IMG/VR virus record: IMGVR_UViG_3300017788_000027
Coordinates: 1-59,104 of that record
Reading direction: 5' to 3' (one strand)
Length of the DNA: 59,104 bases
DNA from: a virus
Lineage: Duplodnaviria > Caudoviricetes
Positions 29,519-52,975 of this stretch are shown here, in pieces. The notes beneath the pieces are model-generated. The model had not been told where the DNA came from and made no database searches. It saw only the letters and a program-made list of their open reading frames with translations. Position 1 is the stretch's first letter. The number at the start of each line of letters is the position of its first letter. Position numbers and translations under genes: made by a program.

Positions 29519-29519
29519 A

Positions 29520-29525
29520 TAAATA
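29520..29525 (+). promoter_or_regulatory. Putative late promoter core TAAATA
   Basis: AATAAATA in the gap before 29545. Confidence 0.6.
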
Positions 29526-29544
29526 TAAAAAAGGGGTTTAAGGG

Positions 29545-31020: not shown

Positions 31021-31026
31021 TAAATA
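31021..31026 (+). promoter_or_regulatory. Putative late promoter core TAAATA
   Basis: Immediately after the fibre stop; a second copy lies at 31047-31052. Confidence 0.55.
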
Positions 31027-31051
31027 ACGAAACTAAGAAAAGAGAGTAAAT

Positions 31052-32002: not shown

Positions 32003-32012
32003 TTCAAATTTC

Positions 32013-32041
32013 TTGACTTTTACTCTCTAACTCTATAAAAT
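32013..32041 (+). promoter_or_regulatory. Sigma70-type promoter of the glycosyltransferase/radical SAM operon
   Basis: TTGACT (32013-32018)-17 nt-TAAAAT (32036-32041), followed by an AGGAG RBS. Confidence 0.75.
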
Positions 32042-32060
32042 AGAGTATAGGAGTTTTTTT

Positions 32061-32408
32061 ATGAATAAAAACCTACAACAGGCGTTTGAAGTAGCCAATT
32101 ATATGATTACATTGGCTGATCAAAAAAGAGTTTTACAGGAAGAATTTGATCAAAATTCTGTTTATTTTTTAAATGGCGGATGTTTCAAAGTAAACAAAGA
32201 ATTAATTAACTTTGTAAAAACTCTTTTAGATTTAGGAAAAGAGAACGCAGTATTAATTGACAGTAATTCTTTGCCAGTAGAAATCGCCGATCTAAAAACT
32301 TTTTTAGATAATATCCTGCACACGCATTTTTTTGCAGTCAATTCTTATCATACCAAATATCAAAAATTAAAATCTAGCAGAACTATTGAAGGTCTTATCA
32401 GTATATGA
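32061..32408 (+). CDS. Hypothetical protein
   Basis: 115-aa ORF with AGGAG RBS; first gene of the coupled operon. Confidence 0.75.
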   Translation: MNKNLQQAFEVANYMITLADQKRVLQEEFDQNSVYFLNGGCFKVNKELINFVKTLLDLGKENAVLIDSNSLPVEIADLKTFLDNILHTHFFAVNSYHTKYQKLKSSRTIEGLISI

Positions 32409-33238
32409 CCAAAGGTGCTTTAATTTTTTCTTTTGATAATTCTGAAATAGATTATATTTCATTAGCGGCATACTCAGCTAAAAGAATTAGTAACTTCCTA
32501 AACGTTCCAGTGTCACTAATAACTAATGATATTGATAAAGCTAATGATTATAGAACTGTATTTGATCAAATTATATCTTTTGAGGATAATAGTAGACAAA
32601 TAAAAAGATTTTACACTGGATCCAATGAGTATAAAAGTGCTGTATGGTTTAATGAATCTAGGTCTAATGCATTTGTACTTTCTCCTTATGATCAAACACT
32701 AGTATTGGATTCGGATTATATTGTTAATTGTGATTTTCTAAAATATTGCTGGGCACAAAATGAGGATTTTCTATTATACGATAATTCTATGGATTTAGCC
32801 AGTTGGCGTAGTAATGAAGAATTTAAAAATGTAAGTGATTGTGGTATTAAATTTTACTGGGCTACTGTGTTTTTCTTCCGTAAAACAAAGCGTGTTGAAT
32901 TGTTTTTTGCTCTAGTAGATCATATAAAACAAAATTGGCAGTATTACTTGAAATTATACCATCTACCTGGTTCTAAATTTAGAAATGATTATGCTTTTAG
33001 TATAGCAATTAATATATTAGATGGATTTTCTAAAGAATCAAACTTTCAAACTTTTGCAAATAAAATGATATATGTTACTGACAGAGATATTCTATTAGAA
33101 CACACACAAAATAGAATGAAATTCTTATTACAGAAAAAAGGTAAGATTGATGAATACACATTAGTTACTACTGATAATTTAGATGTCCATGTTATGAGTA
33201 AATTTAGCCTATTGGAAGTGATAAAAAATAATGAATAA
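32405..33238 (+). CDS. GT-A fold glycosyltransferase-like protein
   Basis: SPYDQTLVLDSDY DxD motif and RNDYAF; paralogue of the next gene. Confidence 0.7.
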   Translation: MTKGALIFSFDNSEIDYISLAAYSAKRISNFLNVPVSLITNDIDKANDYRTVFDQIISFEDNSRQIKRFYTGSNEYKSAVWFNESRSNAFVLSPYDQTLVLDSDYIVNCDFLKYCWAQNEDFLLYDNSMDLASWRSNEEFKNVSDCGIKFYWATVFFFRKTKRVELFFALVDHIKQNWQYYLKLYHLPGSKFRNDYAFSIAINILDGFSKESNFQTFANKMIYVTDRDILLEHTQNRMKFLLQKKGKIDEYTLVTTDNLDVHVMSKFSLLEVIKNNE

Positions 33239-34043
33239 AGGTCATGTTTTTCTAGCGCAAAATTCTACTATAGATTATGTTGAGCAGGCCTTTCTGTTGG
33301 CGTCTACTATAAAACAAAATAATAAAATCAATCAAACCTGTTTAATTACTTCAGATGAAGTACCGGACAATTTTAGATCAGTGTTCGATTACGTTGTAAA
33401 AATACCTGGGGAAGATCAAGCAAAGGTATCTAAATGGAAGATAGAAAACAGGTGGAAAATCATTCATGCCACACCTTTTGAAGAGAATTTAGTCTATGAT
33501 ACAGATATGCTGGTATTATCATCAAATGATCATTGGTGGGATTTTTTGTCAAATAAGGACGTTGTATTAACTTCAAAAGTTAAAGATTTTAGAGGTAACA
33601 CTATAGTCAATGACTCATATAGAAAGACTTTTACTAGCAATAATCTTCCTAACGTGTACATGGGTGTTCATTATTTTAAAAAGAGCCCAAAAGCATTTGA
33701 ATTTTATAAATGGCTCGAAGTTATCACTAAAAATTATAAAGATTTTTATTCTAAATTTTTATCTAAGAATCAACAGAGATTTTGTAGTATGGATGTAAAT
33801 GCCGCATTAACTGTCAAATTTATGGATGCTGAAGCAGAATTTATGATAGATACAGATACGCCTTCATTTGTACATATGAAATCAGATATACAGGGCTGGG
33901 GGTCAAAATCATCTTTTTGGCAGGATATAATAACCTGGCACTATAACAAACAGTTAATAGTGGGAAATATTCTACAGACTGGCGTTTTTCATTATACAGA
34001 AGATGATTTTTTAACGGAAGAATTATATGGAAGTATTAACTGA
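33231..34043 (+). CDS. GT-A fold glycosyltransferase-like protein
   Basis: TPFEENLVYDTDML DxD motif, FVHMK and FHY. Confidence 0.7.
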   Translation: MNKGHVFLAQNSTIDYVEQAFLLASTIKQNNKINQTCLITSDEVPDNFRSVFDYVVKIPGEDQAKVSKWKIENRWKIIHATPFEENLVYDTDMLVLSSNDHWWDFLSNKDVVLTSKVKDFRGNTIVNDSYRKTFTSNNLPNVYMGVHYFKKSPKAFEFYKWLEVITKNYKDFYSKFLSKNQQRFCSMDVNAALTVKFMDAEAEFMIDTDTPSFVHMKSDIQGWGSKSSFWQDIITWHYNKQLIVGNILQTGVFHYTEDDFLTEELYGSIN

Positions 34044-34617
34044 GGAAGAACTTCTTTTAGCCAAGCAGAGATATATACCACCTACTCATGCCTATATCTA
34101 TTATAATGATAATAGGAAAGTTGTTAGTATTTCACCTATAAAATATGATCATGAAGTAACAAATTTTATAGAAGTGCCATTTATTAGGGCACTAGATTTC
34201 TTAGAAGGAAAAAAAGATCCTGCTAGGTATGATTTAGAATATTTTAAAACTGGTAAAGAAAAACTATTGGATACTAAAAAGGTATTGCGAAAAAATCTTA
34301 TATTTCAAATACCAGAAATTAATACTCTAGCTGAAGTAACTTTTGTACATAATATCAAAAATAAAAGATGGGAAGTATCTTTAACTAATTCGGCCATAGA
34401 CGAATTAGAAAAAATGAACTTGAACACAGTTTTAAAATTCTATGTTACAGTTAAATCTAGACCACAGTTATTGATACGTACTATAGATATAAAAGGTACT
34501 GAACTGATAACAAAAAAGTTTATTAATTTTTCTACAGAATACGAGTTAAATTTAGATAAAATTAGTTTATATACATATCCTGAATTTAATTCTTACGGAG
34601 TTAAAAAGAATGACTAA
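34027..34617 (+). CDS. Hypothetical protein
   Basis: 196-aa ORF overlapping both neighbours; no motif recognised. Confidence 0.7.
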   Translation: MEVLTEEELLLAKQRYIPPTHAYIYYNDNRKVVSISPIKYDHEVTNFIEVPFIRALDFLEGKKDPARYDLEYFKTGKEKLLDTKKVLRKNLIFQIPEINTLAEVTFVHNIKNKRWEVSLTNSAIDELEKMNLNTVLKFYVTVKSRPQLLIRTIDIKGTELITKKFINFSTEYELNLDKISLYTYPEFNSYGVKKND

Positions 34618-35518
34618 ATTGAAAGTTACTGATTTTGATATAGTATATCTCAGCTATGATGAACCTAATGCTGAAAAAAATTACGCAGATTTATTAACAA
34701 AAGTTCCTTGGGCTAAACGTGTGCATGGAGTCAAAGGCAGTGACAGCGCACATAAAGCCTGTGCTAATCTCAGTGAAACTGATAGATTTATAACCATTGA
34801 CGGTGATAATATTATTAGAGCTGAATTTGTAAATCAAGAAATTGATATTGACGACAGTGTGGACCTAAGTCGAAGCGTTATTAGTTGGGGTGCGTATAAC
34901 TTAATCAACGGACTAATATATGGCAACGGTGGTATAAAATGTTGGCCTAAGGATCTAGTGTTAAACATGCGAACGCACGAAAACGCAGACCCATCAAATG
35001 ATAAGGGTCAAGTTGATTTTTGTTGGGACGTTCAATATATACAACAAGATTCTTGCTTCAGCGACATACACAATAATGCAACACCTTTACAAGCATGGCG
35101 TGCTGGATTTCGTGAAGGTGTAAAAATGACACTGCTAGAAGGCACTAAGTTGGCAGATCCGGGTCAGACCACAAAACTAGTTCACTGGAAAAATTTAGAA
35201 AGACTGCTTGTTTGGTGTAATGTTGGATTAGATTCGCTTAACGGTATATGGGCTATATATGGCGCAAGACAGGGCTGTTATATGACTAATTTAACAGACT
35301 GGGATTTTAAAAACGTTAGAGATTTTGAATATCTTAATGAACTTTGGACAACTACAGTATCTAAAGAAATTGATGATTATAATATCTCTGATAAAATTGT
35401 TGAACTAGGCAAAGAAATCTCTAGCAATCTTGATCTGCCAATGGGCTATATGGACTCAGAAGCCAGTAAGTTTTTTAAGATGGTTTACAGAAATCCCAGT
35501 AGGACTAAAACAAAATAA
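34610..35518 (+). CDS. Glycosyltransferase-like protein (GT-A, DGD motif)
   Basis: DIVYLSYDEPNA...GVKG..AH...IDGDN...YGNGG...AWRAGFRE. Confidence 0.65.
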   Translation: MTKLKVTDFDIVYLSYDEPNAEKNYADLLTKVPWAKRVHGVKGSDSAHKACANLSETDRFITIDGDNIIRAEFVNQEIDIDDSVDLSRSVISWGAYNLINGLIYGNGGIKCWPKDLVLNMRTHENADPSNDKGQVDFCWDVQYIQQDSCFSDIHNNATPLQAWRAGFREGVKMTLLEGTKLADPGQTTKLVHWKNLERLLVWCNVGLDSLNGIWAIYGARQGCYMTNLTDWDFKNVRDFEYLNELWTTTVSKEIDDYNISDKIVELGKEISSNLDLPMGYMDSEASKFFKMVYRNPSRTKTK

Positions 35519-36216
35519 TGTACGATATTGTTTTTATCAGTTATAATGAACTTAATGCTGATGAGAATTGGCAGAGGCTGAAATCTAGATTTCCTATGGC
35601 ATCTCATATACACGGAGTCAAAGGGATACATCAAGCGCATATTGCCGCAGCGAAATCTTGCTTTACAAATATGTTTTGGGTTATTGATGGAGATGCAGAA
35701 ATTTTAGATGATTTTGATTTTAGTTATATAGTACCTAAACATCAATTACATACCGTGCATGTGTGGCGTAGTCGCAACCCAATAAATGATCTAGAATATG
35801 GAAATGGAGGGGTTAAATTGTTACCAAGGAATCTAACTATAAACATGGATACTGGTAGAACTGACATGACTACGAGTATCAGTCAACACTTTAAAGCGGT
35901 AAAAGAAGTTAGTAATGTGACAGTGTTTAATACTAATCCTTTTAATACTTGGCGTAGCGCATATAGAGAATGTGCAAAACTAGCAGGTAGGATCATTGAT
36001 AGACAAAAAAACGATGAAACTGAATATAGATTAAATGTCTGGTGCACAGTCGGTGGAGACAGGCCATATGGAAAATTTGCGATAGATGGTGCAAATCATG
36101 GGAAACTTTATGGAAGTCAATGGGCTCATGACGTTTCAAAAATGTCAAAAATAAATGATTTTGATTATTTAAAAACCCTTTACGATATGTTAGGTGTCGA
36201 AGAAAAATGCAAATAA
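35518..36216 (+). CDS. Glycosyltransferase-like protein (paralogue of the preceding gene)
   Basis: DIVFISYNELNA...GVKG..AH...IDGDA...YGNGG...TWRSAYRE. Confidence 0.65.
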   Translation: MYDIVFISYNELNADENWQRLKSRFPMASHIHGVKGIHQAHIAAAKSCFTNMFWVIDGDAEILDDFDFSYIVPKHQLHTVHVWRSRNPINDLEYGNGGVKLLPRNLTINMDTGRTDMTTSISQHFKAVKEVSNVTVFNTNPFNTWRSAYRECAKLAGRIIDRQKNDETEYRLNVWCTVGGDRPYGKFAIDGANHGKLYGSQWAHDVSKMSKINDFDYLKTLYDMLGVEEKCK

Positions 36217-37436
36217 AAGATTATTTAGATAGGTTTGAGCTTTTATTTCCTGACAATGAAAATCTTAAAGACTATAGGCGCGCCTACAATGATAAAGATT
36301 TATCTAGTATATTTAAATTGTTAGATAATGATGAGTTGCGTAAGGCAGTTATGGAGGAAAATTTACATAGTATTTTTAGAGTATTAGAACCGCATTCTTT
36401 AAAAAATCTTAAATTAGATAAAGAAGATTTTAGAAAAGCTATTTTAGAAAAAAACTTGCACAGTGTTTTTAGATTATTGGACAAATCATCTACAAAAGAA
36501 ACACAGATAAATTTAGATGATTTTAGAAAATCAGTGATTGAACACAATTTATCTAGTATATTTCGCATTTTAGAATCATCAATAATTGATCTAGATTTCA
36601 ATGTTTCTGATTTTAGAAAAGCGGTTATGAATAATAATCTGCGCAGTATTTTTAGATTTTTTGATTGTGATGACATCCGAAAAGCCGTTATAGATAAAAA
36701 TTTAGACTGCATTTTTAGAATAGAACCAAATGAAACTCTTAGAAAATTGATATTTGAAGACAATTATAAAGTACTATGGGAAATCCTAACTGAAAATGCA
36801 AGAACAACTTTTGTTCAGACTCTTAAATTTATATACAATAATAAAATAGAATTTGATTACAATAGTTTTAGTCAAGGGCAAATTAAAAGTAAGATCTGGT
36901 TGATAAAAGAACTAAAAAAATTAAATTTAAATTTGGGAGTAGTGTTTTTATGTGCAGGATGGTACGCTACACTGGCAACACTTCTTTTTGAGAATGATTT
37001 TCAAATTACTAAAATAAGAAGTTTTGATGTAGATCCGGCCTGTGCTGATATGGCAGACAGGTTTAATAAACCATGGGTGTTGCAGGAATGGAAATTTAAA
37101 TCTTCTACAAAGGATATTTTAGATATAGATTATAATATTGATCTTTACCAAGTTAAAAAATCTGACGGTACATTAGAAACTTGCAAAGACAGACCGGATA
37201 CAATTATTAATACAAGTTGCGAACATATTAAAAATTTCGATCAATGGTATGACAGAATTCCAATAGGAAAATTGCTTATATTACAAACAAACAATTATTT
37301 TGATATCGATGATCACGTTAATTGCAGTAAAAATTTAGAAGAGTTTGCAAAAAATACTCCTATGTCTAAATTGTTGTATCAGGGCGAGCTAGATTTAGTT
37401 AAGTATAAAAGATTTATGAGGATCGGCTACAAATGA
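36207..37436 (+). CDS. Class I SAM-dependent methyltransferase-like protein with N-terminal tandem helical repeats
   Basis: C-terminal VFLCAGWY...IRSFDVDP...IINTSCEH Rossmann pattern; seven N-terminal repeats. Confidence 0.65.
   Translation: MQIKDYLDRFELLFPDNENLKDYRRAYNDKDLSSIFKLLDNDELRKAVMEENLHSIFRVLEPHSLKNLKLDKEDFRKAILEKNLHSVFRLLDKSSTKETQINLDDFRKSVIEHNLSSIFRILESSIIDLDFNVSDFRKAVMNNNLRSIFRFFDCDDIRKAVIDKNLDCIFRIEPNETLRKLIFEDNYKVLWEILTENARTTFVQTLKFIYNNKIEFDYNSFSQGQIKSKIWLIKELKKLNLNLGVVFLCAGWYATLATLLFENDFQITKIRSFDVDPACADMADRFNKPWVLQEWKFKSSTKDILDIDYNIDLYQVKKSDGTLETCKDRPDTIINTSCEHIKNFDQWYDRIPIGKLLILQTNNYFDIDDHVNCSKNLEEFAKNTPMSKLLYQGELDLVKYKRFMRIGYK
36273..36788 (+). repeat. Seven degenerate in-frame repeats (21-31 aa), consensus [FLI]RK[AS]VxxxNLxS[IV]FR
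   Basis: LRKAVMEENLHSIFRVL, FRKAILEKNLHSVFRLL, FRKSVIEHNLSSIFRIL, FRKAVMNNNLRSIFRFF and IRKAVIDKNLDCIFRIE, plus two degenerate flanking copies. GATTTTAGAAAA recurs in the DNA. Confidence 0.9.
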
Positions 37437-38602
37437 TCTATCAGTACAAGGATATCAGAACAGTTCATTTGGAAATTACAGAACGTTGTAATGCTAGTTG
37501 TCCTATGTGTGCTAGAAATATAAATGGTGGTGAGGATAACCCTTATCTTAAGGACAACGAATTGACGTTGGAAGACTGTAAAAAGATTTTCCCTTCAGAG
37601 TTTATACAGCAATTGGATAGAATGTATATGTGCGGAAATTTTGGAGATCCAATCGCCGCTAGAGATACATTGGAGGTATTTGAGTATTTTAGAGCGAATA
37701 ATTCTAAAATGAATTTGACTATGTATACCAATGGTAGTGCGAAACGACCCGAATGGTGGAAGCACCTTGCACAGGTATTAGGTAAAAATGCTTATGTAGT
37801 GTTTAGTATTGACGGGCTAGGAGATACTAATCATTTGTACAGACAGAATACAAATTGGTCGAAAATAATAGAAAATGCTAAAGCGTTTATTTCCGCAGGA
37901 GGCCGAGCTCGATGGGATTATATTGTTTTCGCGCACAACGAACATCAAGTTGAAACTGCAGAAGCACTAAGCAAACATATGGGATTTGAAAAGTTTCAAT
38001 ATAAAAAGAGCGCAAGATTTTTTAGTAATAATAGTGGAGTTACTAAAGAAATGCATCAAGCTATGAGCAGAAAAGGCACATCTACTCTGTTACAAGCGCC
38101 GACGAACTCTAAATATCGAAATAGTGTGCTAGATCAGATCAGTAAAGTTGTTGGTAAAGAAGAAGTTATTAAGTTTTTGCCGTCAAAAAAATCAGAAGCA
38201 TTACAAGTTCAAGGAAATCAAAAATTTAGTTCAACCCCTGAATTAAAATCTAAATTGGAAAAAGAGTTGGATTCGGCTGTCATAAAATGTAAAGTAGCTG
38301 AGGAAAAATCGCTATATATAAGTGCTGAAGGTATCGTGCAGCCATGTTGTTGGACAGCGGGGCAAATGTACGTTTGGTATTACAAACCAGAAGCTTCGCA
38401 AATTTGGCAGGCGATTAACATTGTAGGAAAAGATAGCATAAATGCGAAAAATCACAATTTAGAGGATATAGTGAACGGATTATATTTTCAATCAGTAATA
38501 CCTAATAGCTGGAATAAGACTAGCTGTGCTGACGGAAAATTAGCAGTATGTGCCAAAACTTGCGGTACTAAGTATGATGCTTTTGCAGAGCAGTTTAAAT
38601 GA
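37433..38602 (+). CDS. Radical SAM enzyme with C-terminal twitch/SPASM-like domain
   Basis: CNASCPMC; CGNFGDP in place of GGEP; FSIDG; C-terminal CK...PCC...CAKTC. Confidence 0.9.
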   Translation: MIYQYKDIRTVHLEITERCNASCPMCARNINGGEDNPYLKDNELTLEDCKKIFPSEFIQQLDRMYMCGNFGDPIAARDTLEVFEYFRANNSKMNLTMYTNGSAKRPEWWKHLAQVLGKNAYVVFSIDGLGDTNHLYRQNTNWSKIIENAKAFISAGGRARWDYIVFAHNEHQVETAEALSKHMGFEKFQYKKSARFFSNNSGVTKEMHQAMSRKGTSTLLQAPTNSKYRNSVLDQISKVVGKEEVIKFLPSKKSEALQVQGNQKFSSTPELKSKLEKELDSAVIKCKVAEEKSLYISAEGIVQPCCWTAGQMYVWYYKPEASQIWQAINIVGKDSINAKNHNLEDIVNGLYFQSVIPNSWNKTSCADGKLAVCAKTCGTKYDAFAEQFK

Positions 38603-39645
38603 ACATTAATAATATTAGAAAAATTGAATTGGAAATCACAAGCAATTGTAATGCTGCTTGTCCTGGATGTGCTAGAACACAAAATTCGGATATTCTAGAA
38701 ATTCGTAGTTTTACACTAACCGATTTAAAAAGAATATTTCCTGAGGCATCTTATATTAAGAACAAACAATTTAAATTTTGCGGGGTGCTAGGAGATCCAG
38801 CATTTAATTCAGAATGTGTTGACATGGTGGAATATCTAACATTATTTGGTGGGCATTGCCAACTCAGTACTAATGGTGGAATACAAACAACAGATTGGTG
38901 GAAAAGATTAGGTGCAATAAGTAATAGGACAAAAAAAGTTGATGTGGTATTTTGTGTAGATGGACATAAAGAAACCAATCATATTTACCGAGTTAACACA
39001 GTGTTTGATGTTATAGCACGTAACATGGAATCATACGCAACTGCAGGTGGTATTGGTACTTGGATGTTTATTGTGTTCGATCACAATGAGCATGAACTTC
39101 CAGCAGCTGAAAGTCATGCTAAACAGTTGGGTTTTAAATTTGCTACCAGAACCGGTATGAGAAATAGCATACATGATTGGGTTGCAGTTGTTAGTAAAAA
39201 GCAGCAAGGAAAGCTGATAAAGGAGCAAGTGGTTATTACTACCACTGGAGAAAAAGAACACAGCAAAAAAGAACAGGTTAAAGAATTACAAAAATTTATC
39301 GAGGCACCCAAAAAAGAAAAAAAGCAAGAAATCCTAGATTCCATTGTGTGCAAACTAGTTCATGAAGGCGAGATCTTTATTGCATCGGATCAGACTATGT
39401 GGCCCTGTTGTTTTCTTTGGGACAGTTATTTTAAAAATAAAGAAAATATTAGACAAAAACTTAATGGTTATTCTGATGGGTGGAATAGTTTAAAAGATAA
39501 ATCGATCAACGATGTCCTTCAAACTGAATGGTTTGATGAGGTATTAACCCTTAGTTGGGATCCATCACACAATAAACATTTAGATAGATGTATCAGAACT
39601 TGTGCTAAAAATAAAGCATATCAAAATGAGATTAAATTTAAATGA
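38599..39645 (+). CDS. Radical SAM enzyme with C-terminal twitch/SPASM-like domain (paralogue of the preceding gene)
   Basis: CNAACPGC; CGVLGDP; CK...PCC...CIRTC. Confidence 0.9.
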   Translation: MNINNIRKIELEITSNCNAACPGCARTQNSDILEIRSFTLTDLKRIFPEASYIKNKQFKFCGVLGDPAFNSECVDMVEYLTLFGGHCQLSTNGGIQTTDWWKRLGAISNRTKKVDVVFCVDGHKETNHIYRVNTVFDVIARNMESYATAGGIGTWMFIVFDHNEHELPAAESHAKQLGFKFATRTGMRNSIHDWVAVVSKKQQGKLIKEQVVITTTGEKEHSKKEQVKELQKFIEAPKKEKKQEILDSIVCKLVHEGEIFIASDQTMWPCCFLWDSYFKNKENIRQKLNGYSDGWNSLKDKSINDVLQTEWFDEVLTLSWDPSHNKHLDRCIRTCAKNKAYQNEIKFK

Positions 39646-41048: not shown

Positions 41049-42378
41049 ACCTATTATTTGTGCATATGCATTAGGCGCCATTAATTATAAAAATGGCTTT
41101 GTAACCAGTTGCCCTCAACAATCAGACCAGTTGCACGTATATAAAGACACAAAAGTTTTAAAACCTTCTGAAATCATAAATTCTGAAAATTTTAAGAAAC
41201 ATAGAAAAGAATTAATGAGTGGAACATGGAGTAAGGGTTGTCATTTGTGTAAAGAAGCAGAGGAAATTGGGTCGCCATCTATGCGACAGGATTATCTGGT
41301 CACCGATCAAGATTTAGAATTGTATAATAATGAATCGGGAGAAACTAATTTTAAATTAATCAAACACGTCGAATTGCGATTTAGTAATAGTTGTAATATG
41401 GCATGTTTACATTGTAGTGATGTTTATTCAAGCGGATGGGTCAGCAAACTAAAAAATTATGTTCCTGATGAAGAAGATAAAAAACATAAACTTTTACAGT
41501 TAACTAAGACTTTTCATAAATTGACACCTGATGAAGATCTTACTATTAGTATATCTATCAATGAGATGGAAATTATTATTGACGACTTAATTGAAAATTT
41601 CCCTAATTTAAAAAAAGTAGACTTTGCTGGAGGCGAGGTGTTATATCAAAAGCAGTTTTTCCCCTGCCTCAGAAAATTATCCAAGCATCCAAATGTAAAA
41701 AACATGAAGGTGTCTTTTCATACAAATTTTAATGCTAAATTTAAACCAGAAGAACTTTCTGAGGTATTACAGCCTTTTGGAAAAGTGTCAATACAAATGT
41801 CGTTAGATGCTGGAAAAAACATTTATCCATATTTTAGAACTGGTGATTGGGAAGTATTAAAGTCAAATGTTGAGCGTTTTAGAAAAGTTGATAATAAATG
41901 TGAATTGAATATAAAATGCACAACCAGCGTTTATCAGATCATGGACATTGAAGATGTGTTTAAATCTTTTATGGAATTAGATGTCAATTTTATAGACAGT
42001 GCAATAGTTTACACTCCGAGATATATTAATCCGGCGTTAATGGTTATGCACTTTAAGGATGAGGTATATCAAGATATTCAAAAAACATATAAGATGTTAA
42101 GTGATGAATTAAAATATAGATTAGAAAATTTAAGTTCTTATGAACATAGGAAGTCCTGGGTGCCTAATAGGAAAGAGTTTACAGATATTAGAACTGCGTT
42201 TAAAGCATTAGAAGAAATTGAACATTATGTTTTTAATCATCAATGTAAAAAAGAAGAATGGGACGCTCTTTTAGTTTATATTAGAAAAACCGACTCCATA
42301 TGGAAAAGAAATTTCAATGATTTTATAAAGAAGTATGAATTTAAAGATAATCAACTAGTGAGGTCAATAAATGTTTGA
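41041..42378 (+). CDS. Radical SAM enzyme with N-terminal twitch domain
   Basis: ICAY...SC...CHLC, then CNMACLHC and FAGGE. Confidence 0.88.
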   Translation: MTKPIICAYALGAINYKNGFVTSCPQQSDQLHVYKDTKVLKPSEIINSENFKKHRKELMSGTWSKGCHLCKEAEEIGSPSMRQDYLVTDQDLELYNNESGETNFKLIKHVELRFSNSCNMACLHCSDVYSSGWVSKLKNYVPDEEDKKHKLLQLTKTFHKLTPDEDLTISISINEMEIIIDDLIENFPNLKKVDFAGGEVLYQKQFFPCLRKLSKHPNVKNMKVSFHTNFNAKFKPEELSEVLQPFGKVSIQMSLDAGKNIYPYFRTGDWEVLKSNVERFRKVDNKCELNIKCTTSVYQIMDIEDVFKSFMELDVNFIDSAIVYTPRYINPALMVMHFKDEVYQDIQKTYKMLSDELKYRLENLSSYEHRKSWVPNRKEFTDIRTAFKALEEIEHYVFNHQCKKEEWDALLVYIRKTDSIWKRNFNDFIKKYEFKDNQLVRSINV

Positions 42379-43234
42379 AGACTCGAATAACTTGTATAAG
42401 GATCTGAACGAAGAAAATCAAATTATCGCTAAAGACTACGATATGAAATTATATCGATTTAGCGGGTTGGATATCCCCTGGAGTCCAAAATGGAAAAAAA
42501 TTGCAATTAATCTATCTGGTGGTGCTGATAGTTGCTGTTTGACAGTACTGCTTTGTAAAATAATTGAAAAATATCAATATGATTGTAAAATTGATATTAT
42601 TACACATGTTAGGTGTTGGACGACTCGTCCTTGGCAACAGCCTATAAGTTTAATAGTGTTTAATAAACTTAAAGAAATGTATCCAAATATTATTGATACT
42701 CGCCATGAAAACTTTATCGCACCAGAACTAGAACATGGAGTAACGGGGTACATTTATACTGATCCTAAATTTAATAAAGAACATAGCGGCGATCAGTTGC
42801 AAGTATCTAGTTTTAATGCTTATTGCGGGTTTAAAAATAAGTTCGATGCTATCTTTAATGCCACTAGTTTGAATCCTCCAGGTACCGACTTTCCAAAGAA
42901 AATGATGGATAGAGAAAAAATAGCTAAAGATGGAATAACTAGTGATTTGATCTTATTTGTTGAAGGAAGTTTTTTGTGCCACCCATTTAGGTTTGTTGAC
43001 AAGTCCTGGATCATAGCGCAATATTACAAGTATAAGATCACTGATTTGTTAAAGTTAACAAGAAGCTGCGAAGGTGATGTAACACACCCTGTAATTAAAG
43101 ATATAGTTTCTAGTTATAAAGATTATATTTCTGGTATGGACGTGCCAGAGTGCGGTAGTTGTTTTTGGTGTTTAGAAAGAAATTGGGCATTTTCTAAACT
43201 TACTGAAACTTTAGAAAAAATAAAGAATGTCTAA
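42371..43234 (+). CDS. QueC-like PP-loop ATP pyrophosphatase
   Basis: LSGGADS PP-loop; TRSCE...CGSCFWCLER zinc site. Confidence 0.8.
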   Translation: MFEDSNNLYKDLNEENQIIAKDYDMKLYRFSGLDIPWSPKWKKIAINLSGGADSCCLTVLLCKIIEKYQYDCKIDIITHVRCWTTRPWQQPISLIVFNKLKEMYPNIIDTRHENFIAPELEHGVTGYIYTDPKFNKEHSGDQLQVSSFNAYCGFKNKFDAIFNATSLNPPGTDFPKKMMDREKIAKDGITSDLILFVEGSFLCHPFRFVDKSWIIAQYYKYKITDLLKLTRSCEGDVTHPVIKDIVSSYKDYISGMDVPECGSCFWCLERNWAFSKLTETLEKIKNV

Positions 43235-44531
43235 TACTTTTTGTCCTATACCTTGGAACTTTCAAGCCATACGTGCCAATGGTGATATACGTGTGTGTTG
43301 TCAGGCCAATGTGACTAAAAATCAAGGCGTTATTCGTAAAGATAACGGAACTGCTTTTAACGCAGGTAGAGATGTATTAGTTGATGCTCGTAACAACGAC
43401 ATGATGAAAGCAATGCGACTAAACATGTTAAATGGTGTATGGAGTGAAGAATGTGGTCGCTGTCGTAATGAGGAATCTGCAGGATTAGTTAGTAGACGTA
43501 CATATGAAAATGAACAGTGGAAATTAAGTATCGATGAGGCTTGGGCAAAAACTAAAGATGATGGCAGTATAGATTCAACTGATTTTCCTGTAGTTTATTA
43601 TGACTTACGTTTTGGTAATTTTTGCAATTTAAAGTGCAGAATGTGTGGACCCACTGATAGCAACGCATGGTATGATGATTGGATAAAATTAACCGGCAGC
43701 AATAAGTTTAAAGATACCAGCGGCATTATGGAAATTGTAGACGGCAATGTTCCAGCGTTCAATTGGCCGGAGTATGAACCATTCTGGGAACAACTAGAAT
43801 CAAATATTCACAATATACAACATGTATACTTTGCTGGCGGTGAACCTATGCTTATCGAACGGCACTATGATTTTTTAGAGCGATGTGTTGAAAAAGATGC
43901 AGCTAAAAACATCATTGTAGAATACAATACGAATATGAGTACATTGCCCACTAGGGTCACTGATCTATGGACACATTTTAAACAGGTTCGTATAGGAGCA
44001 AGCGTTGATGGAATGGGAATGATGCAAGAATATCAACGCAGTCCAGCAAAGTGGGTTAAGACCCTAAACAATTTACGAAAAATAGATCAGTTGCCAGATA
44101 ACATATTTGGGTGGCTGGCATTTACTGTTACAGCATACAACGTTAATCATATGATCGATTTTATGATGTGGAAATTAAAAGAATCTAATTTTAAAAAAAT
44201 TAATTTCACATTTAAACGACCAATTATTACACATCATGTAGCACATCATCCTAAACATTTAAATGTTAGAGTCTTACCGGATCAATATAAAAAAGAAGTT
44301 ACAGAAAGACTTCAGCAATTTGTACAATGGGTCAAAGATAACGGTTATGCCGGCCATGTAATTAAACAGGCAACTGACATAGCTAATGGGGTATCAAGTT
44401 ACATGAATGCTGAAAGTTATTTTGACACGCATTGGAATGAATTTGTCAAATATACTAACGATCTTGATAAAATAAGAGATGAAAAATTAACTGATGTTGA
44501 GCCCAAATTTAAGGAATATTTAAATGGCTAG
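43227..44531 (+). CDS. Radical SAM enzyme with N-terminal twitch domain
   Basis: FCPIPW...RVCC...CGRC, then CNLKCRMC and FAGGEP. Confidence 0.9.
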   Translation: MSNTFCPIPWNFQAIRANGDIRVCCQANVTKNQGVIRKDNGTAFNAGRDVLVDARNNDMMKAMRLNMLNGVWSEECGRCRNEESAGLVSRRTYENEQWKLSIDEAWAKTKDDGSIDSTDFPVVYYDLRFGNFCNLKCRMCGPTDSNAWYDDWIKLTGSNKFKDTSGIMEIVDGNVPAFNWPEYEPFWEQLESNIHNIQHVYFAGGEPMLIERHYDFLERCVEKDAAKNIIVEYNTNMSTLPTRVTDLWTHFKQVRIGASVDGMGMMQEYQRSPAKWVKTLNNLRKIDQLPDNIFGWLAFTVTAYNVNHMIDFMMWKLKESNFKKINFTFKRPIITHHVAHHPKHLNVRVLPDQYKKEVTERLQQFVQWVKDNGYAGHVIKQATDIANGVSSYMNAESYFDTHWNEFVKYTNDLDKIRDEKLTDVEPKFKEYLNG

Positions 44532-45234
44532 TTTTGATACAGTTGATTTATTAGACGGAAATGTATTTCAAGTTACATGGGATCTTGGAAGAAGGTGTAA
44601 TTATGATTGTAGTTATTGCCCTGCTCATAGACATGATAATTTTAGTCCACATGCAATGTTAGAAGATTTGATTAAAAACAGTGATTTTGTTTTGAAATAT
44701 ATCGATCTTTATATGACTTATAGAAATTATAAAAGAGCAAGTATTAGCTTTACAGGCGGGGAACCAACAGTAAATCCTAGTTTTATCCCTTTTATAAAAT
44801 ATTTAAAAGATACGTACAACGAAAAATATAAAAAAAGATATGATTGTAGTTTTGCACTAACAAGTAACGGCGCTATGAGTGAAAAAATGGCGACTCAAGT
44901 TATGGAAAATTTAGATCATATCACTATCAGTTATCATGCTGAAGCTGATGATAGGCTTAAAAATCAAGTCAAGGATCGAATGGTCCAGTTCCATTTGTAT
45001 GGAGCACAGAACAACTGTACTATGAGTATCAATGTAATGTTTCACGCTGCGTATTTTGGAGAATGTATTAAAGTTTGTGAATTTTTAGATGAACGTGATA
45101 TTAAATATGTTCCTCGGATCATCGGTGAAGAACCAGATAGTAAAAGCAATTTTGCCCATATGTACACCAAGGAGCAAACACAATGGTTCAAAGACTATTG
45201 GGATAAAAATACTAAAAAGGTTCAACAATCATGA
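44524..45234 (+). CDS. Radical SAM core domain (N-terminal half of a split enzyme)
   Basis: VTWDLGRRCNYDCSYC, FTGGEPT, TSNG and ISYHAE; no C-terminal Cys domain. Confidence 0.85.
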   Translation: MASFDTVDLLDGNVFQVTWDLGRRCNYDCSYCPAHRHDNFSPHAMLEDLIKNSDFVLKYIDLYMTYRNYKRASISFTGGEPTVNPSFIPFIKYLKDTYNEKYKKRYDCSFALTSNGAMSEKMATQVMENLDHITISYHAEADDRLKNQVKDRMVQFHLYGAQNNCTMSINVMFHAAYFGECIKVCEFLDERDIKYVPRIIGEEPDSKSNFAHMYTKEQTQWFKDYWDKNTKKVQQS

Positions 45235-45692
45235 GCGAAGAAAAAGAATTGGCATTAAAAATAGGTAGACCTTGCTGCGGTAGTAGGACCATGTGTCTCT
45301 ATAAAGAAGGCGAATCTAGAAAGAGTAAGTTTGTTGATTATCGTGAATTTAAAGGTTGGTACTGTAGTGTAAATTGGTTTTTCATGCATATAGAGCAACA
45401 GACTGACAGTGTGTTTCACCATCAAACGTGTCAAGCACAGTTTGGTCAAACTCGTGGGCCTATAGGCAAGTTAAGTGAGGGCGACAAAATTCTCGCAGAA
45501 CTTGAGGAGCATTTAAAGAATGGTACTATGCCTACGATTATTTGCCCTAAGCACACTTGTGGCTGTGGGTTATGTTCCCCTAAATCGACCACTAAAGAAA
45601 ACTATCAAAAAGTATTGTTTAATCACGTTGATAAAAGCGTATTTAAAAATTCTATGAACGAACAAGGTGATTTAGATAAATGCAAAAAATAA
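45231..45692 (+). CDS. Stand-alone Cys-rich SPASM/twitch-like domain (C-terminal half of the split enzyme)
   Basis: PCCG, FKGWYCS, HQTC and ICPKHTCGCGLC; aligns by eye with the C-terminus of 47882..49048 (FKNWECS). Confidence 0.7.
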   Translation: MSEEKELALKIGRPCCGSRTMCLYKEGESRKSKFVDYREFKGWYCSVNWFFMHIEQQTDSVFHHQTCQAQFGQTRGPIGKLSEGDKILAELEEHLKNGTMPTIICPKHTCGCGLCSPKSTTKENYQKVLFNHVDKSVFKNSMNEQGDLDKCKK

Positions 45693-46774
45693 TCTATTAT
45701 ACTGACGATCCAAAAACCTTATCATGGAATGGGGGATTTATATCTTCTCGACCTTGTTTTTTTCCTACGTTAATGTTTGAAGAAAATAATGTATTTTTTG
45801 AAAATTTTAAAAGTTCAAATTCATATAAAGATGATGATATATTTTATCTGCTGTGGAATGATGGCGGATGTTTAAATGATACACAATTAAAATTTTTAAA
45901 AAATCATAGATGTATAATTGGTGGCAAAGAAGCATACTGCGATCAATGGAAAGAATATTACATTAATTTAAATAATCCAAATTTACTTTTTTTATTTTCT
46001 AGTCAAGGCATTAATACAAAAAATAAGATTTTTTTAGAAAAATATTGGTGGATTTTGACTTATTTTAACTTGGTAGATGCAGATTATAATTTATTGAATG
46101 GAATAACATCAACGAAGACACTTGATAAAAAATTTCTTTTGCCGATTAGAACAACCGAGGGACCTAGAACTTGGAGATTAGAATTTTATGGTTCGTTAGT
46201 GGATCACTTAGATGACAGTCTGTTTAGCAGACATGATCTTGAATTAATGTTAGATCATTCATTGTTTAGACAGAGTGGTTCCGAAGTATCATTAGGTTCT
46301 GATCACCGAGAAAATTTGTTTTCCGATATGGAGTCTAATTGGAATATAATGCAGGCAAATCCAGAATGGTATTCAAAAACACATTTTTCAATAGTTCTCG
46401 AAACTTACATTAAAAATGAATACCCTATCTTTATCACTGAAAAAACATTTAAACCAATTGCTAATGAGCATCCATTTATGATAGCATCAGTGCCACGCAC
46501 TTTAGATACTTTAAGATCATGGGGTTTTGAAACGTTTAATAACTTATTTGATGAGTCTTATGATGATTTGATTTACGAAAGCACTGATATTAGAAAAAAA
46601 GTTCAAATCATAAAGAAAAATGTTGATAATTATGACTACTCTAAATATTATGATTCAACGACCTTGAAAAAAATAAAGCATAATCGAGAATTATTTTTTA
46701 ATCTTGATGAAATTAAAAAACACTATACCAACGATTTTTTATTTCCTATACTTGATTGGATTAATCCTAAATGA
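45680..46774 (+). CDS. Putative glycosyltransferase (GT10-like C-terminal motif)
   Basis: FSIVLET...FITEKTFKPI...PF resembles the nucleotide-sugar-binding E...TEK motif of GT10 enzymes. Confidence 0.45.
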   Translation: MQKIIYYTDDPKTLSWNGGFISSRPCFFPTLMFEENNVFFENFKSSNSYKDDDIFYLLWNDGGCLNDTQLKFLKNHRCIIGGKEAYCDQWKEYYINLNNPNLLFLFSSQGINTKNKIFLEKYWWILTYFNLVDADYNLLNGITSTKTLDKKFLLPIRTTEGPRTWRLEFYGSLVDHLDDSLFSRHDLELMLDHSLFRQSGSEVSLGSDHRENLFSDMESNWNIMQANPEWYSKTHFSIVLETYIKNEYPIFITEKTFKPIANEHPFMIASVPRTLDTLRSWGFETFNNLFDESYDDLIYESTDIRKKVQIIKKNVDNYDYSKYYDSTTLKKIKHNRELFFNLDEIKKHYTNDFLFPILDWINPK

Positions 46775-47889
46775 AAAATACTTACTGCCCTTTGCCTTTT
46801 TATCATTTAGCGATACGCCCAAATGGTAGGGTTTATCCATGTTGTAATTTTAAATGGGAAGAGGTTCCTGAAGATTTTAACATTAATGATCCTAACGTTT
46901 TTAATCATCCATTTTTAGAATCTATCAGAGAAAAAATGCACAACGGTGAAAAGATTGATGGATGTTCTAAATGTTATGAGGATGAAAAAAATACAGAGCA
47001 AAGTACTCGAACATACTTTTTAAATAGAATAGACGAATTTGAATGGTCAAGCAAGCCTACAAAAGATGTTAAACTAACTTATTTAGATCTTGCTCTTAGT
47101 AACACCTGCAATAATAAATGTAGAATGTGTAATGCAGATTTAAGTACGAGTTGGTATAGTGACTGGCGTGCCCTAGGTAGAGAAATACCTAAAGGGATTC
47201 TTAGACAGGAAACAGTGTTAAAGGATTATGATTTTAGTGAGATGAAATTTATTAAACTTATTGGTGGCGAACCTTTAATGGAACAGGATAAATTTATTGA
47301 TGTGCTAAAAAGATGTAATAGAAGTCAACTATCAATTCTTTTAACTACAAATGTTACACTAACACCAAATGATGAACTATTAAGATTGCTTAAAGAATGT
47401 AAAAATGTTACAATTAATCTAAGTATTGACGCCCACGGATCTTTAAATGATTTTTTAAGAAAAGGCAGCAAATGGGAAAAAACTGTTGAAAACATCGAGT
47501 GGTTTTCTAAGAATTTTTCAAAAAAGAATGATCTAGCACTACACGGGGTTATAAGTCTTTATAACGTTAATAAAATCGATGAACTATATTTTTTCTTAAA
47601 AGAAAATTATCCGTTAATAGATCTCAGTTATGTGTTAGTTGATAGTCCGGATTGGATGAGTATAAAGCATTTACCTGAATATGTAAAAGATGAAATTAAA
47701 AAGAAAATAGAACAATGGAAAAAAATTTACGATACTCCTTTTTACAATGTCTTACTTTCTGAGTTAAACAAATTAGGTGATTTTGAAAAATTTATAAAAA
47801 ATGATAAAAAACTTAGTGAGATTAGAAAAGAAAATTGGTGGGACTACAACCCTGAACTTTACGAAATGGTGAAAAAATATTATGAGTGA
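46771..47889 (+). CDS. Radical SAM enzyme with N-terminal twitch domain
   Basis: YCPLPF...PCC...CSKC, then CNNKCRMC and IGGEP. Confidence 0.9.
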   Translation: MKNTYCPLPFYHLAIRPNGRVYPCCNFKWEEVPEDFNINDPNVFNHPFLESIREKMHNGEKIDGCSKCYEDEKNTEQSTRTYFLNRIDEFEWSSKPTKDVKLTYLDLALSNTCNNKCRMCNADLSTSWYSDWRALGREIPKGILRQETVLKDYDFSEMKFIKLIGGEPLMEQDKFIDVLKRCNRSQLSILLTTNVTLTPNDELLRLLKECKNVTINLSIDAHGSLNDFLRKGSKWEKTVENIEWFSKNFSKKNDLALHGVISLYNVNKIDELYFFLKENYPLIDLSYVLVDSPDWMSIKHLPEYVKDEIKKKIEQWKKIYDTPFYNVLLSELNKLGDFEKFIKNDKKLSEIRKENWWDYNPELYEMVKKYYE

Positions 47890-49048
47890 TCTAGCAACGT
47901 CAGCTTACGACTTTACAAAAATACCATTTGATGATATCGTGCGTGTTGGGCAACGTACTATGCTGTATCGAGATCTTTTTACAGTCAGTTGGCTATTAGG
48001 TAGATTCTGTAACTATAAATGTAGCTATTGTTGGCCTTATGCACGTAGTGATAAAAAAGATCATAGACCTACAGAGTTATGTTTAAAGACTGTTGATGAA
48101 ATAAAAAGACAGGCTAGAGAAAGAGGGTTCAATAGTTTTCATTTTAGTCTTAGCGGCGGCGAGCCAACATTTCATCCTGGCTATATTGACATATTAAATC
48201 ACCTTAACAATGATGTAAACAATACAAATTATACCAGTGTTCATATGACAACAAATATGAGTAGAAATATGAAATGGTTTAAAGAAGAATATTGTCCCGC
48301 AGTAAGTAAATTTCACAGAGCTAGTATTACTGCCAGTTTGCATACAGAGTATATTAACACTTCTGAGAAAAAAGCAGAGTTTGCTGATAAGTTAGATTTG
48401 TGTCAACAACACGATGTACAAGTCACTATTAATATGGTAATGGTTCCTGAATGGTTTGAACGTGATTATGAAAACGCATTGTATTTTCATAATAGAGGAA
48501 TCAATGTTACATTAAAGCCTCAGAGTGATCCTACAGCCAGTTTTGTTGTAGAGGGCTATACACCAGAAATGTTAAAGACTCTGCGCAACGGAATGCCTCA
48601 ACGAGCATTTACAGAAACAAAAGCCGCACTTGCCAAACTAATAGAAAGACCTAAGCCTAATTTTAATAAATCACCAGATCCAATATACTTAGAAGAACAC
48701 AGTGCTATACCACAACATTTTCAAGTTGAATTTGTTGATAAGGACAAAAAAGTTTGGTACATGGATCAAGCTGAAAGATTTAATGCTTTTAATTTTAATA
48801 AATTTAAAAATTGGGAATGTTCAAGCGGATATCGTAGCATCATTATCAGAGAACCTGATGGAAATATAAAACGTAGCTATAGTTGTCACGACGAACCGTT
48901 AGGTAATATAGAAACTGGTTTTAAACTATTTGATGGACCTAAACCCTGTATTACAAACAGTTGTGTAAGTAGCGCAGACTCTAAAATACCAAAAAGAGCC
49001 CCGGGAACAAAATTACCTTTATGGCCCGGGGATCAGTCTTTTAATTAA
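47882..49048 (+). CDS. Radical SAM enzyme with C-terminal Cys-containing domain
   Basis: VSWLLGRFCNYKCSYC, LSGGEPT; C-terminal CSSG...SC...PCITNSC. Confidence 0.9.
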   Translation: MSDLATSAYDFTKIPFDDIVRVGQRTMLYRDLFTVSWLLGRFCNYKCSYCWPYARSDKKDHRPTELCLKTVDEIKRQARERGFNSFHFSLSGGEPTFHPGYIDILNHLNNDVNNTNYTSVHMTTNMSRNMKWFKEEYCPAVSKFHRASITASLHTEYINTSEKKAEFADKLDLCQQHDVQVTINMVMVPEWFERDYENALYFHNRGINVTLKPQSDPTASFVVEGYTPEMLKTLRNGMPQRAFTETKAALAKLIERPKPNFNKSPDPIYLEEHSAIPQHFQVEFVDKDKKVWYMDQAERFNAFNFNKFKNWECSSGYRSIIIREPDGNIKRSYSCHDEPLGNIETGFKLFDGPKPCITNSCVSSADSKIPKRAPGTKLPLWPGDQSFN

Positions 49049-52917: not shown

Positions 52918-52946
52918 TTCGGCTCCTGAACTTTACTATATTTAAT

Positions 52947-52975
52947 ATTATAACACCGCCCGTGGGCGGTGTCAA
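52947..52975 (-). promoter_or_regulatory. Consensus sigma70 promoter with a palindromic spacer
   Basis: TTGACA-17 nt-TATAAT; inverted repeat ACACCGCCC-GT-GGGCGGTGT at 52953-52972. Confidence 0.85.

Follow-up and report, generated by a model that had tools for sequence, protein, structure and literature searches.

What might a tailed phage build with eight radical S-adenosylmethionine (SAM) enzymes encoded in one run with putative sugar transferases, next to its tail-fibre genes? The question is raised by the 59,104-base viral contig IMGVR_UViG_3300017788_000027 (here the window, that is, the whole stretch of DNA analysed; estimated completeness, 17%), a fragment of the genome of an uncultured jumbo myovirus of ~350 kb of the Rak2/XacN1 type. 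It carries a block of 18 genes, g1 to g18 (Table 1), that belongs to a family of related islands. The reading proposed here, with moderate confidence, is that this island is a cytoplasmic system that builds a glycan and tailors it by radical chemistry. It is located at the far end of the baseplate, giant-fibre and tail-fibre module of ~350-kb uncultured aquatic jumbo myoviruses.

The 18 genes lie on the + strand at 32061-49048, and an open reading frame (ORF) listing together with a script confirmed what an earlier note on this DNA, made without database searches, had reported: the genes are co-oriented and all 17 junctions overlap by 1-17 nt (in order 4, 8, 17, 8, 1, 10, 4, 4, 4, 8, 8, 8, 8, 4, 13, 4 and 8 nt), which suggests translational coupling. 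The G+C content is 0.29-0.36 within the block versus 0.37-0.46 in its flanks. None of the 18 proteins contains a membrane-type hydrophobic segment (a 19-mer typical of a membrane helix). The left half of the window encodes a gp55-type late sigma factor, baseplate hub and wedge proteins, a 4648-amino-acid virion protein, three tail-fibre-like proteins and a Ser/Thr/Gly-rich protein of 316 amino acids (u316), with the fibre genes directly upstream of the operon, as the earlier note had placed them. Jumbo phages of the Rak2/PA5oct/Atu_ph07/SCTP-2 type have wedge proteins with 34-38% identity to the one encoded here. The 4648-amino-acid frame has CBM5/12 carbohydrate-binding modules close to its C terminus and an FG-GAP repeat; its product probably forms a giant fibre or attaches to the baseplate, corresponding to ORF361 (>288 kDa) of the cultured Ralstonia phage RsoM2USA. 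Downstream of the operon the genes run on the opposite strand, beginning with thyX.

The CxxxCxxC motif is present in eight of the 18 proteins (g8, g9, g10, g11, g13, g14, g17 and g18). Seven pass the gathering score of the Pfam family Radical_SAM (PF04055), and the eighth, g9 (24.4 versus 29.5 bits), is 30% identical to g8 in BLASTP (E 1e-49). BLASTP groups them as g8/g9, g10/g11/g13/g17 and g14/g18, in agreement with the eight enzymes in three subfamilies noticed earlier. The second group exceeds, over the whole model, the curated cut-off of 170 bits of NF033640, the NCBIfam “twitch domain-containing radical SAM protein” (scores in Table 1); the remaining four proteins, at 25-54 bits, fall outside this family. 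Among solved structures the NF033640 profile matches SkfB best (E 2.8e-7). The N-terminal Cys-rich region of the profile aligns marginally with the auxiliary-cluster domain of BtrN (E 0.0035), a sugar-acting enzyme that likewise joins a radical SAM core to a Cys-rich auxiliary-cluster domain, although that domain is C-terminal in BtrN and N-terminal in NF033640, and the similarity does not rise above that to SkfB. BlsE, BtrN, viperin, MoaA, SkfB, NifB and GDGT-MAS all give similarly weak E values against the island radical SAM proteins, and the matches obtained include no characterised member of the NF033640, g8 or g18 families. The g18 protein has a mean column identity of 81% over 12 sequences. 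The small protein g15 weakly resembles residues 293-350 of g18 (E 0.007) and adjoins g14 in those relatives that retain it, so that g15 is possibly a detached C-terminal domain of g14; at this E value the idea that g14 and g15 form a split g18 was not adopted as an assignment and is kept as a suggestion.

The transferases present a more varied picture. The g5 and g6 proteins are paralogues (32% identity, E 4e-31) from a family in which D57xD59 and 22 other columns are invariant in an alignment of 32 sequences. The AlphaFold2 (AF2) model of g6 (predicted local distance difference test [pLDDT], 94) is matched in Foldseek by the GT-A glycosyltransferases RmlT, WrtF, ppGalNAc-T, PBCV-1 A64R and SunS at E values of about 1e-4, and in VIA with Z scores of 9-11 over residues 1-140. 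This predicts a GT-A nucleotide-diphospho-sugar transferase fold for g6. The g5/g6 profile retrieves nothing below E 0.19 among solved structures and has no match to curated glycosyltransferase sequence families such as PF00535. The g2 and g3 proteins, 30% identical at the N terminus, belong to a family with an invariant D90xD92 in 25 sequences, and their joint profile weakly resembles glycogenin (GT8) along the N-terminal 90 positions, DxD included (E 0.0026), with no match to Pfam PF01501 (GT8). The nearest Atlas clusters of g3 are nucleotide-diphospho-sugar transferases by name, which is taken as a lead only. The four DxD GT-A-like proteins of the earlier note are therefore borne out by fold and invariant DxD for g5 and g6, and indicated by a weak GT8 profile and an invariant DxD for g2 and g3.

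The N terminus of g7 consists of about five repeats of ~23-30 amino acids with the motif NxHSxFR, which in the AF2 model (pLDDT 87) fold into a helical array attached to the enzyme. The C-terminal half has at least 500 Foldseek matches at E ≤ 0.001, nearly all of them, among those listed, methyltransferases (probability 1.0; template modeling [TM] score of 0.72 by target with NodS), and 1980 unnamed homologues of this domain were found. The model of this half has the fold of a class I SAM-dependent methyltransferase, and the methyltransferase expected in the cluster is accounted for in this way. In g12, SGGADS and the cysteines C233, C261, C264 and C267 (pattern C...CxxCxxC) are invariant in 19 sequences. 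Its family matches are weak and all below the cut-offs (PF01171, E 0.035; TilS_N, 1.5e-3; a QueC-like PHROG, 2.7e-4), and solved structures match at the motif only, at E > 0.1. The invariant SGGADS points to a PP-loop protein; the label “QueC-like” draws on the motif, the weak PHROG match and the Cys cluster, and puts the case too strongly. The GT10-like label given to g16 found no support: none of 24 family members matches PF00852 at E ≤ 1, and a profile search of solved structures gave no match at E ≤ 10. The sole pointer to a GT10 fucosyltransferase was an Atlas lead of 0.81, below the Atlas bar. The g16 family has an invariant TEKxxKP stretch, which presumably resembles a GT10 motif; the assignment is not confirmed.

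When viral contigs were scanned with g10, 138 stretches matched, and 80 loci with 73-94% identity to g10 were kept from these; occurrences were counted in 40 distinct loci with full 10-kb flanks, and radical SAM genes over a span of 21 kb. Each locus has 5-12 radical SAM genes related to those of the window (median, 9), so that eight is ordinary for this island family. Among the 40 loci, g10 occurs in 40, g8 in 38, g5 or g6 in 35, g7 in 33 and g18 in 28, and g5 or g6 is found together with g7, g8 and g10 in 31. The recurring core is composed of the GT-A protein, the repeat-methyltransferase and three radical SAM types (g8, g10 and g18). The full order from the tail-fibre gene tf3 through u316 and g1 to g18 is kept in three loci (L009, L011 and L013) and, with gaps, in five (L012, L014, L083, L027 and L079), and the linkage that the earlier note supposed is thereby conserved in other viral contigs beyond chance. 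Neither g11 nor g17 is present in the close relatives L012, L014 and L083, and L009 has other radical SAM genes at the position of g16 in the window. The island is hypervariable, and its content looks more like a core with exchangeable cassettes than like the linear “assembly line” first pictured.

In four loci (L033, L049, L044 and L046) g5, g6, the repeats and the g7 methyltransferase form a single frame, and in L038 g5 is fused to g6; these fusions indicate that the three proteins act on one substrate. Some g6 forms have extra partial GT-A copies, and a 938-amino-acid form in L077 has four g6-like segments. Strict matches to the NxHSxFR repeat vary from 2 to 5 among the fused or long g7 forms, and a Pfam scan of the long g5, g6 and g7 forms revealed no extra informative domain. 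A divergent NF033640 gene lies between g5 and g6 in L029, L053, L021, L063/L064 and RsoM2USA (gene 349), and is absent from this position in the window.

Accessory genes were sought by a Pfam scan of 150 of the 175 unassigned ORFs from 20 loci. Those of sugar type comprise a UDP-glucose/GDP-mannose dehydrogenase (between g7/g16 and g8 in L045 and L058), a CMP-sugar-type cytidylyltransferase (CTP_transf_3, between g8 and g10 in L029 and L078) and a carbamoyltransferase (directly before g6 in L077 and L084), together with an Asn-synthase-type amidotransferase, FkbM and other methyltransferases, and SGNH/GDSL proteins. Of the 40 distinct loci, 12 contain at least one of these first three types. 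In four of five long relatives (147-342 kb, 41-92% complete) a baseplate wedge homologue lies 26-60 kb upstream in the same orientation, and the fifth contig lacks the gene. This conserved distance places the island at a constant site, where the baseplate-fibre module ends, in one family of ~350-kb phages.

The module is not confined to uncultured phages. Neither the whole operon nor g6-g7 had a blastn match among isolated phages, and tblastn of g10 and g18 gave two weak Vibrio phage matches or none; among isolated phages the module was found only in RsoM2USA (343.8 kb, MG752970.1). Genes 355-347 of this phage encode, in order, a fibre/u316-like protein, g1 (gene 354, 29% identity), g2, g3, a gene at the g4 position, g5, an NF033640 protein, g6 and a g7-type methyltransferase, with 29-48% identity to the window for the module proteins. 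They directly follow ORFs 356, 359 and 361, whose products were identified in virions by mass spectrometry (PMC8504454, in its accessible part). In the same portion of that report (PMC8504454) the module is unannotated and its genes are hypothetical. RsoM2USA has one radical SAM gene versus eight in the window and lacks g8, g9, g12, g14-g18 and the g7 repeats, so that only residues 329-409 of g7 are matched. From this minimal version it follows that a transferase-methyltransferase block accompanied by a single radical SAM enzyme is the older arrangement, and that the aquatic phages have enlarged the radical SAM set.

A second, cellular setting was revealed by comparing the four NF033640 paralogues with species-representative genomes. 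At least 124 relatives were confirmed among the 600 pattern matches listed, and among those listed most come from Bdellovibrionota metagenome-assembled genomes (MAGs), with about 60% identity to g10. In Bdellovibrionota contigs of up to 936 kb, homologues of g6, g7, g8, g10, g18, g13 and g14 occur together on both strands; the MAG contigs with this chromosomal core are L091-L097, L109, L119 and L132, and L101, L127 and L163 have 5-7 tandem NF033640 paralogues. The neighbours are of an ordinary cellular kind and encode a tRNA synthetase, GT2, SIS, GNAT, Asp/Arg-hydroxylase and outer-membrane-type proteins, the last of which were considered as acceptors and dropped, as no link was found. In a quick tree (30 of 59 phage sequences; Shimodaira-Hasegawa-like approximate likelihood ratio test [SH-aLRT] support only; long outgroup branches) the phage g10 sequences form one clade (support, 99) beside a grade of Bdellovibrionota sequences. 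Six MAG contigs labelled Flavobacteriaceae, Neisseriaceae, Gammaproteobacteria, Acidimicrobiaceae or Chloroflexota (L089, L090, L098, L099, L130 and L152) have g10 within the phage clade, a G+C content of 0.28-0.37 and a same-strand, phage-like gene order, which in L130 starts with a tail-fibre-like gene followed by g1, g2, g3 and g5. Such contigs are probably phage DNA mis-binned into bacterial MAGs.

A scheme can be drawn from what is observed, namely gene content, folds, motifs, conservation, fusions, genomic position and the absence of membrane parts. The four soluble GT-A-type transferases (g2 and g3 GT8-like, g5 and g6 with a GT2-like fold) would assemble a short glycan on a cytoplasmic acceptor from nucleotide sugars. 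The helical-repeat SAM methyltransferase g7 would methylate this glycan, and would do so jointly with g5 and g6, given that some relatives encode all three as a single polypeptide. The radical SAM enzymes g8, g10 and g18, with the cassettes g9, g11, g13, g14 plus g15, and g17 and with the PP-loop protein g12, may then edit the sugars or their activated precursors, the candidate edits being oxidation, epimerisation, dehydration, decarboxylation, C-C chemistry and carboxylate amidation. That the substrates are sugars, and the order of the steps, we infer. A glycan-type product is the best supported because of the fusions, the sugar-nucleotide enzymes in related islands and the fact that no characterised pathway matches the island; this part of the earlier proposal, which as a whole is partly supported, survives.

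The acceptor is placed more tentatively. The fibres or other virion proteins of the phage itself are preferred over the host envelope, as a possibility that we still regard as doubtful, because of the position and strand of the island within the virion module, the layout of RsoM2USA and the analogy with A064R of the chlorovirus PBCV-1. Both systems are virus-encoded, soluble and cytoplasmic and combine GT-A-type domains with a methyltransferase. Relatives of the island fuse g5, g6 and g7 in the glycosyltransferase-glycosyltransferase-methyltransferase order that we take to be that of A064R, and structural searches with g6 retrieved domain 1 of A64R, among others (Foldseek E 1e-3; VIA Z 9.6-9.8). 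The likeness is limited: the sequences show no similarity, many other GT-A proteins tie with A64R as matches, and chloroviruses, unlike the island, are not known to have radical SAM tailoring. Gain and loss of cassettes between close relatives is the pattern of surface-glycan loci.

Several observations weigh against a sugar-based pathway that serves the fibres. The nucleotidyltransferases IspD and MobA match the g6 structure as well as glycosyltransferases do, and g2, g3, g5, g6, g7 and g16 have no Pfam family even at E ≤ 10, so that the transferase and methyltransferase calls rest on fold and on weak profile matches. No radical SAM protein of the island matches a characterised sugar-acting enzyme above noise. 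The window contains no nucleotide-sugar synthesis gene, and the dehydrogenase, cytidylyltransferase and carbamoyltransferase are all absent, within the 10-kb flanks, from 28 of the 40 loci. Accessories compatible with peptide or lipid tailoring also lie in related islands (a nitroreductase, an Asp/Arg hydroxylase, TauD, a B12-radical SAM protein, a halogenase, ATP-grasp, an Asn synthase and a fatty-acid desaturase). A tail-fibre gene is recognisable beside the island only in the sublineage of the window (tf3, 6 of 40 loci), and a PHROG scan of 75 ORFs (72 unassigned ORFs of related loci and 3 of the window) named hardly anything and no tail protein; since adjacency to fibres outside this sublineage is not demonstrable by annotation, the distance to the wedge gene was used instead.

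Of the other explanations, two are equally improbable in our estimate. The GT8- and GT2-like enzymes might extend or alter the lipopolysaccharide (LPS) core or an envelope glycan of the host at the inner membrane face, with radical SAM enzymes making unusual sugars and host exporters displaying the glycan, so that superinfection is blocked or fewer progeny are trapped. The GT8-like profile of g2 and g3 fits this, as GT8 includes LPS-core enzymes, and in Bdellovibrionota chromosomes the core, beside its GT2, SIS-domain, GNAT, Asp/Arg-hydroxylase and outer-membrane-type genes, must serve a cellular product. The authors of the pelagimyophage study so read the glycosyltransferases in a tail-fibre “host recognition cluster” (PMC7029224, in its accessible part), and the latent period of 270 min given for RsoM2USA in the available portion of its description (PMC8504454) would leave time for an envelope change. 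Against these points, no flippase, polymerase or polyprenyl-phosphate transferase turned up among the 18 proteins and the 150 neighbouring ORFs, and the 18 proteins have no membrane segment; those ORFs yielded no match to a Wzx, Wzy, Gtr or ABC family, and neither Gtr-type nor Wzx/Wzy-type O-antigen modification was recognised among the 18 proteins or these neighbours. The island also lies on the same strand within the virion module of phages that look lytic, whereas serotype conversion is typical of temperate phages. The other possibility is maturation of the kind known for peptides that ribosomes make and that are modified after translation (RiPPs), in which the SPASM/twitch enzymes would cross-link, epimerise or modify a protein (candidates being the g7 repeats, a protein of the fibres or some small peptide not seen here) and the transferases would add sugars as in glycocins. 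The characterised SPASM/twitch enzymes in the NCBIfam match lists are mostly peptide maturases, SkfB heads the NF033640 structure matches, the g7 repeats are short with a conserved motif and a copy number that varies widely among homologues, and several accessories named above (B12-radical SAM, Asp/Arg hydroxylase, nitroreductase, halogenase, ATP-grasp and Asn synthase) would suit such a pathway. Yet the operon has no room for a precursor gene because all of its junctions overlap, although a precursor might be encoded elsewhere, and the 18 proteins include no match to a PqqD or RiPP recognition element (RRE) family. In g8, g9, g14 and g18 the radical SAM motif already begins at residues 17-43, which leaves no N-terminal recognition domain, and the repeats are modelled as a folded array whose fusion partners are glycosyltransferase-like.

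Two further explanations are considerably less probable. A hypermodified DNA base or nucleotide, such as a 7-deazaguanine derivative, could be built by the PP-loop and radical SAM enzymes and glycosylated by the transferases. The weak QueC-like match and CxxCxxC cluster of g12, the QueE-like gene near the end of the window, the weak matches of g14 and g18 to viperin and MoaA models, and a thyX or thyA gene that closely follows the island in the window, L016 and L077 point this way. However, the tRNA-guanine transglycosylase (TGT)/DpdA family (PF01702), which was detected in 14 of 14 control genomes, is present in none of the five long relatives, one of them 92% complete, although a divergent DpdA could escape PF01702. 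QueC has no full match and a partial one in two of the five, with no search made for QueD or FolE; the window showed no family of kinases, pyrophosphorylases or hydroxymethylases; and the thymidylate synthases score as ordinary ThyX or ThyA. Of the acceptors that the earlier note had left open (virion, DNA or host surface), DNA has thus lost ground. Least probable, by a little, is that there is no single pathway and that mobile auxiliary genes for unrelated enzymes, each acting alone on host metabolism, have piled up at this site. The great variation in content between loci, the TctA transporter, fatty-acid desaturase and redoxin genes nearby and the low G+C content of the block would agree with this, but not the fixed core, its recurrence in a bacterial phylum in another gene order, the g5-g6-g7 fusions or the overlapping junctions throughout.

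One of the closest known counterparts of the glycan-building island that we favour is the hypervariable “host recognition cluster” of pelagimyophages and cyanomyophages, which lies within the structural module and, in the accessible text, combines tail fibres, glycosyltransferases (GT8 being the commonest) and radical SAM cassettes whose make-up changes from one close relative to the next (Zaragoza-Solas et al. 2020; PMC7029224). It follows a giant structural gene, VrlC, as the island follows the gene of the 4648-amino-acid protein, but pelagimyophages are T4-like with genomes of ~150-190 kb, and the study is, as far as its accessible text goes, descriptive (PMC7029224), whereas the window is Rak2/XacN1-like; the two were compared by description only. 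A marine T4-like genome with 12 radical SAM genes is also on record in the available part of another report (PMC5332604). Radical SAM cassettes beside fibres and glycosyltransferases were accordingly in print already (PMC7029224, in the part available), which narrows the novelty claimed in the earlier note. Its statement that no characterised phage pathway has so many radical SAM enzymes stands in that no match was found, while the cluster is far from singular, given the 138 stretches and the 5-12 genes per locus. Literature searches found no paper that defines the core, the fusions, the Bdellovibrionota counterpart or the product, and those on jumbo phages and radical SAM enzymes, judged by titles and abstracts, nothing describing such a system.

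Glycosylation systems encoded by viruses have been described in chloroviruses, giant viruses and a few phages. Mycobacteriophages reportedly place virion glycosylation operons, with glycosyltransferase and methyltransferase genes, among the structural genes of a tailed phage; these have, to our knowledge, no radical SAM enzymes, and both host and phage type differ. We know of no such viral glycosylation system with radical SAM tailoring, and 5-12 enzymes per locus would be extreme for any glycan pathway known to us. What distinguishes the island from known viral glycosylation and host-recognition islands is this unprecedented radical SAM load.

Coordinates of the remaining features are collected in Table 1. 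The sigma70-type promoter proposed upstream of g1 is present as a site but is no better than chance: its 10/12 matches put it at the top of the scanner list with a score common to 16 other sites, and the region has 92 such sites versus 92.8 ± 8.7 in shuffled sequence, a chance level, so that the site by itself is not evidence. The A/T element at this site resembles what we take to be a T4 late promoter. The exact TATAAATA occurs nowhere in the window; before g1 there is only TATAAAAT, and before three fibre genes ATAAATA, and a T4-type late promoter was rejected as too weak for use. The G+C minimum of the window (0.29-0.30) falls at the two ends of the operon (32001-34000 and 46001-48000), the sites of the least conserved cassettes (g1-g4 and g16-g17). 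Beyond the operon, a MoxR-type AAA ATPase adjoins a DUF2201 metallopeptidase/VWA protein, whose PHROGs family label, “HNH endonuclease” (phrog_1314), conflicts with its Pfam domains; the pair is also found downstream of the island in L016.

Table 1. Features of the window and fused frames of related loci
Feature	Position	Strand	Basis or remark
Single open frame, 4648 aa	11599-25545	+	PHROG virion structural protein family match
Fibre genes	26166-32002		directly upstream of operon
Promoter-like site, TTGACT-17-TAAAAT	32013..32041	+	overlaps TATAAAAT stretch; in the sole 58-nt non-coding gap, before g1
g1, 115 aa	32061..32408	+	no family at E ≤ 0.01; orthologues in 9/40 distinct loci
g2, GT8-like GT-A protein (putative)	32405..33238	+	paralogue of g3; joint profile resembles glycogenin
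g3, GT8-like GT-A protein (putative)	33231..34043	+	joint g2/g3 profile; phrog_1903 (no function label)
g4, 196 aa	34027..34617	+	no family match; weakly conserved (22-34% identity, 11 distinct sequences)
g5, GT-A-type transferase with C-terminal extension (putative)	34610..35518	+	paralogue of g6
g6, predicted GT-A-fold transferase, core	35518..36216	+	AF2, Foldseek, VIA, invariant DxD
g7, N-terminal repeats and predicted C-terminal class I methyltransferase fold, core	36207..37436	+	alignment, AF2, Foldseek
g8, radical SAM with C-terminal Cys-rich (SPASM-like) part, core	37433..38602	+	38/40 distinct loci
g9, radical SAM, paralogue of g8	38599..39645	+	30% identity, CxxxCxxC
g10, N-terminal-twitch radical SAM (NF033640), most conserved core gene	39642..41048	+	411.6 bits
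g11, NF033640 radical SAM, cassette	41041..42378	+	211.3 bits
g12, PP-loop ATP pyrophosphatase-like, C-terminal Cys cluster	42371..43234	+	invariant SGGADS
g13, NF033640 radical SAM	43227..44531	+	380.7 bits; 34% identity to g10
g14, short radical SAM core, g18 type	44524..45234	+	33% identity to g18 N terminus, E 1e-11
g15, Cys-rich, 153 aa, 10 Cys	45231..45692	+	weak g18 match
g16, 364 aa, cassette	45680..46774	+	orthologues in 5/40 loci; GT10-like label not confirmed
g17, NF033640 radical SAM, cassette	46771..47889	+	272.5 bits
g18, radical SAM with C-terminal Cys-rich domain, very conserved core gene	47882..49048	+	28/40 loci
MoxR-type AAA ATPase and DUF2201 protein	51742-54072	-	adjoining pair
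Ninth radical SAM gene, QueE-like, outside operon	58082-58933	-	phrog_2076, E 5.6e-50
Fused frames in related loci	L033:3139-6210; L049:4101-7484; L044:3-2888; L046:3-2462; L077:4075-6891		819-1127 aa

The island is abundant, as the 1980 homologues of the g7 domain and the 138 g10 stretches indicate, and it sits where phages keep their host-recognition genes. If its product decorates fibres or the host surface, it would bear on host range and on competition between phages in aquatic systems. The NF033640, g8 and g18 enzymes are a likely source of new radical chemistry, since none of the matches to these families is a characterised member, and the Bdellovibrionota chromosomes offer a second, cellular setting in which the system can be studied. 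A bolder idea, which we consider unlikely, is that a novel type of glycosylation is common to tailed phages and the predatory Bdellovibrionota, in which GT-A enzymes lay a short glycan on adhesive fibres and a changeable radical SAM set rewrites it in place. If true, hypervariable glycans on virions or cell surfaces would set the range of hosts or prey, or shield the fibres, and radical “glycan editing” would be a mechanism of diversification that embraces several unprecedented sugar chemistries.

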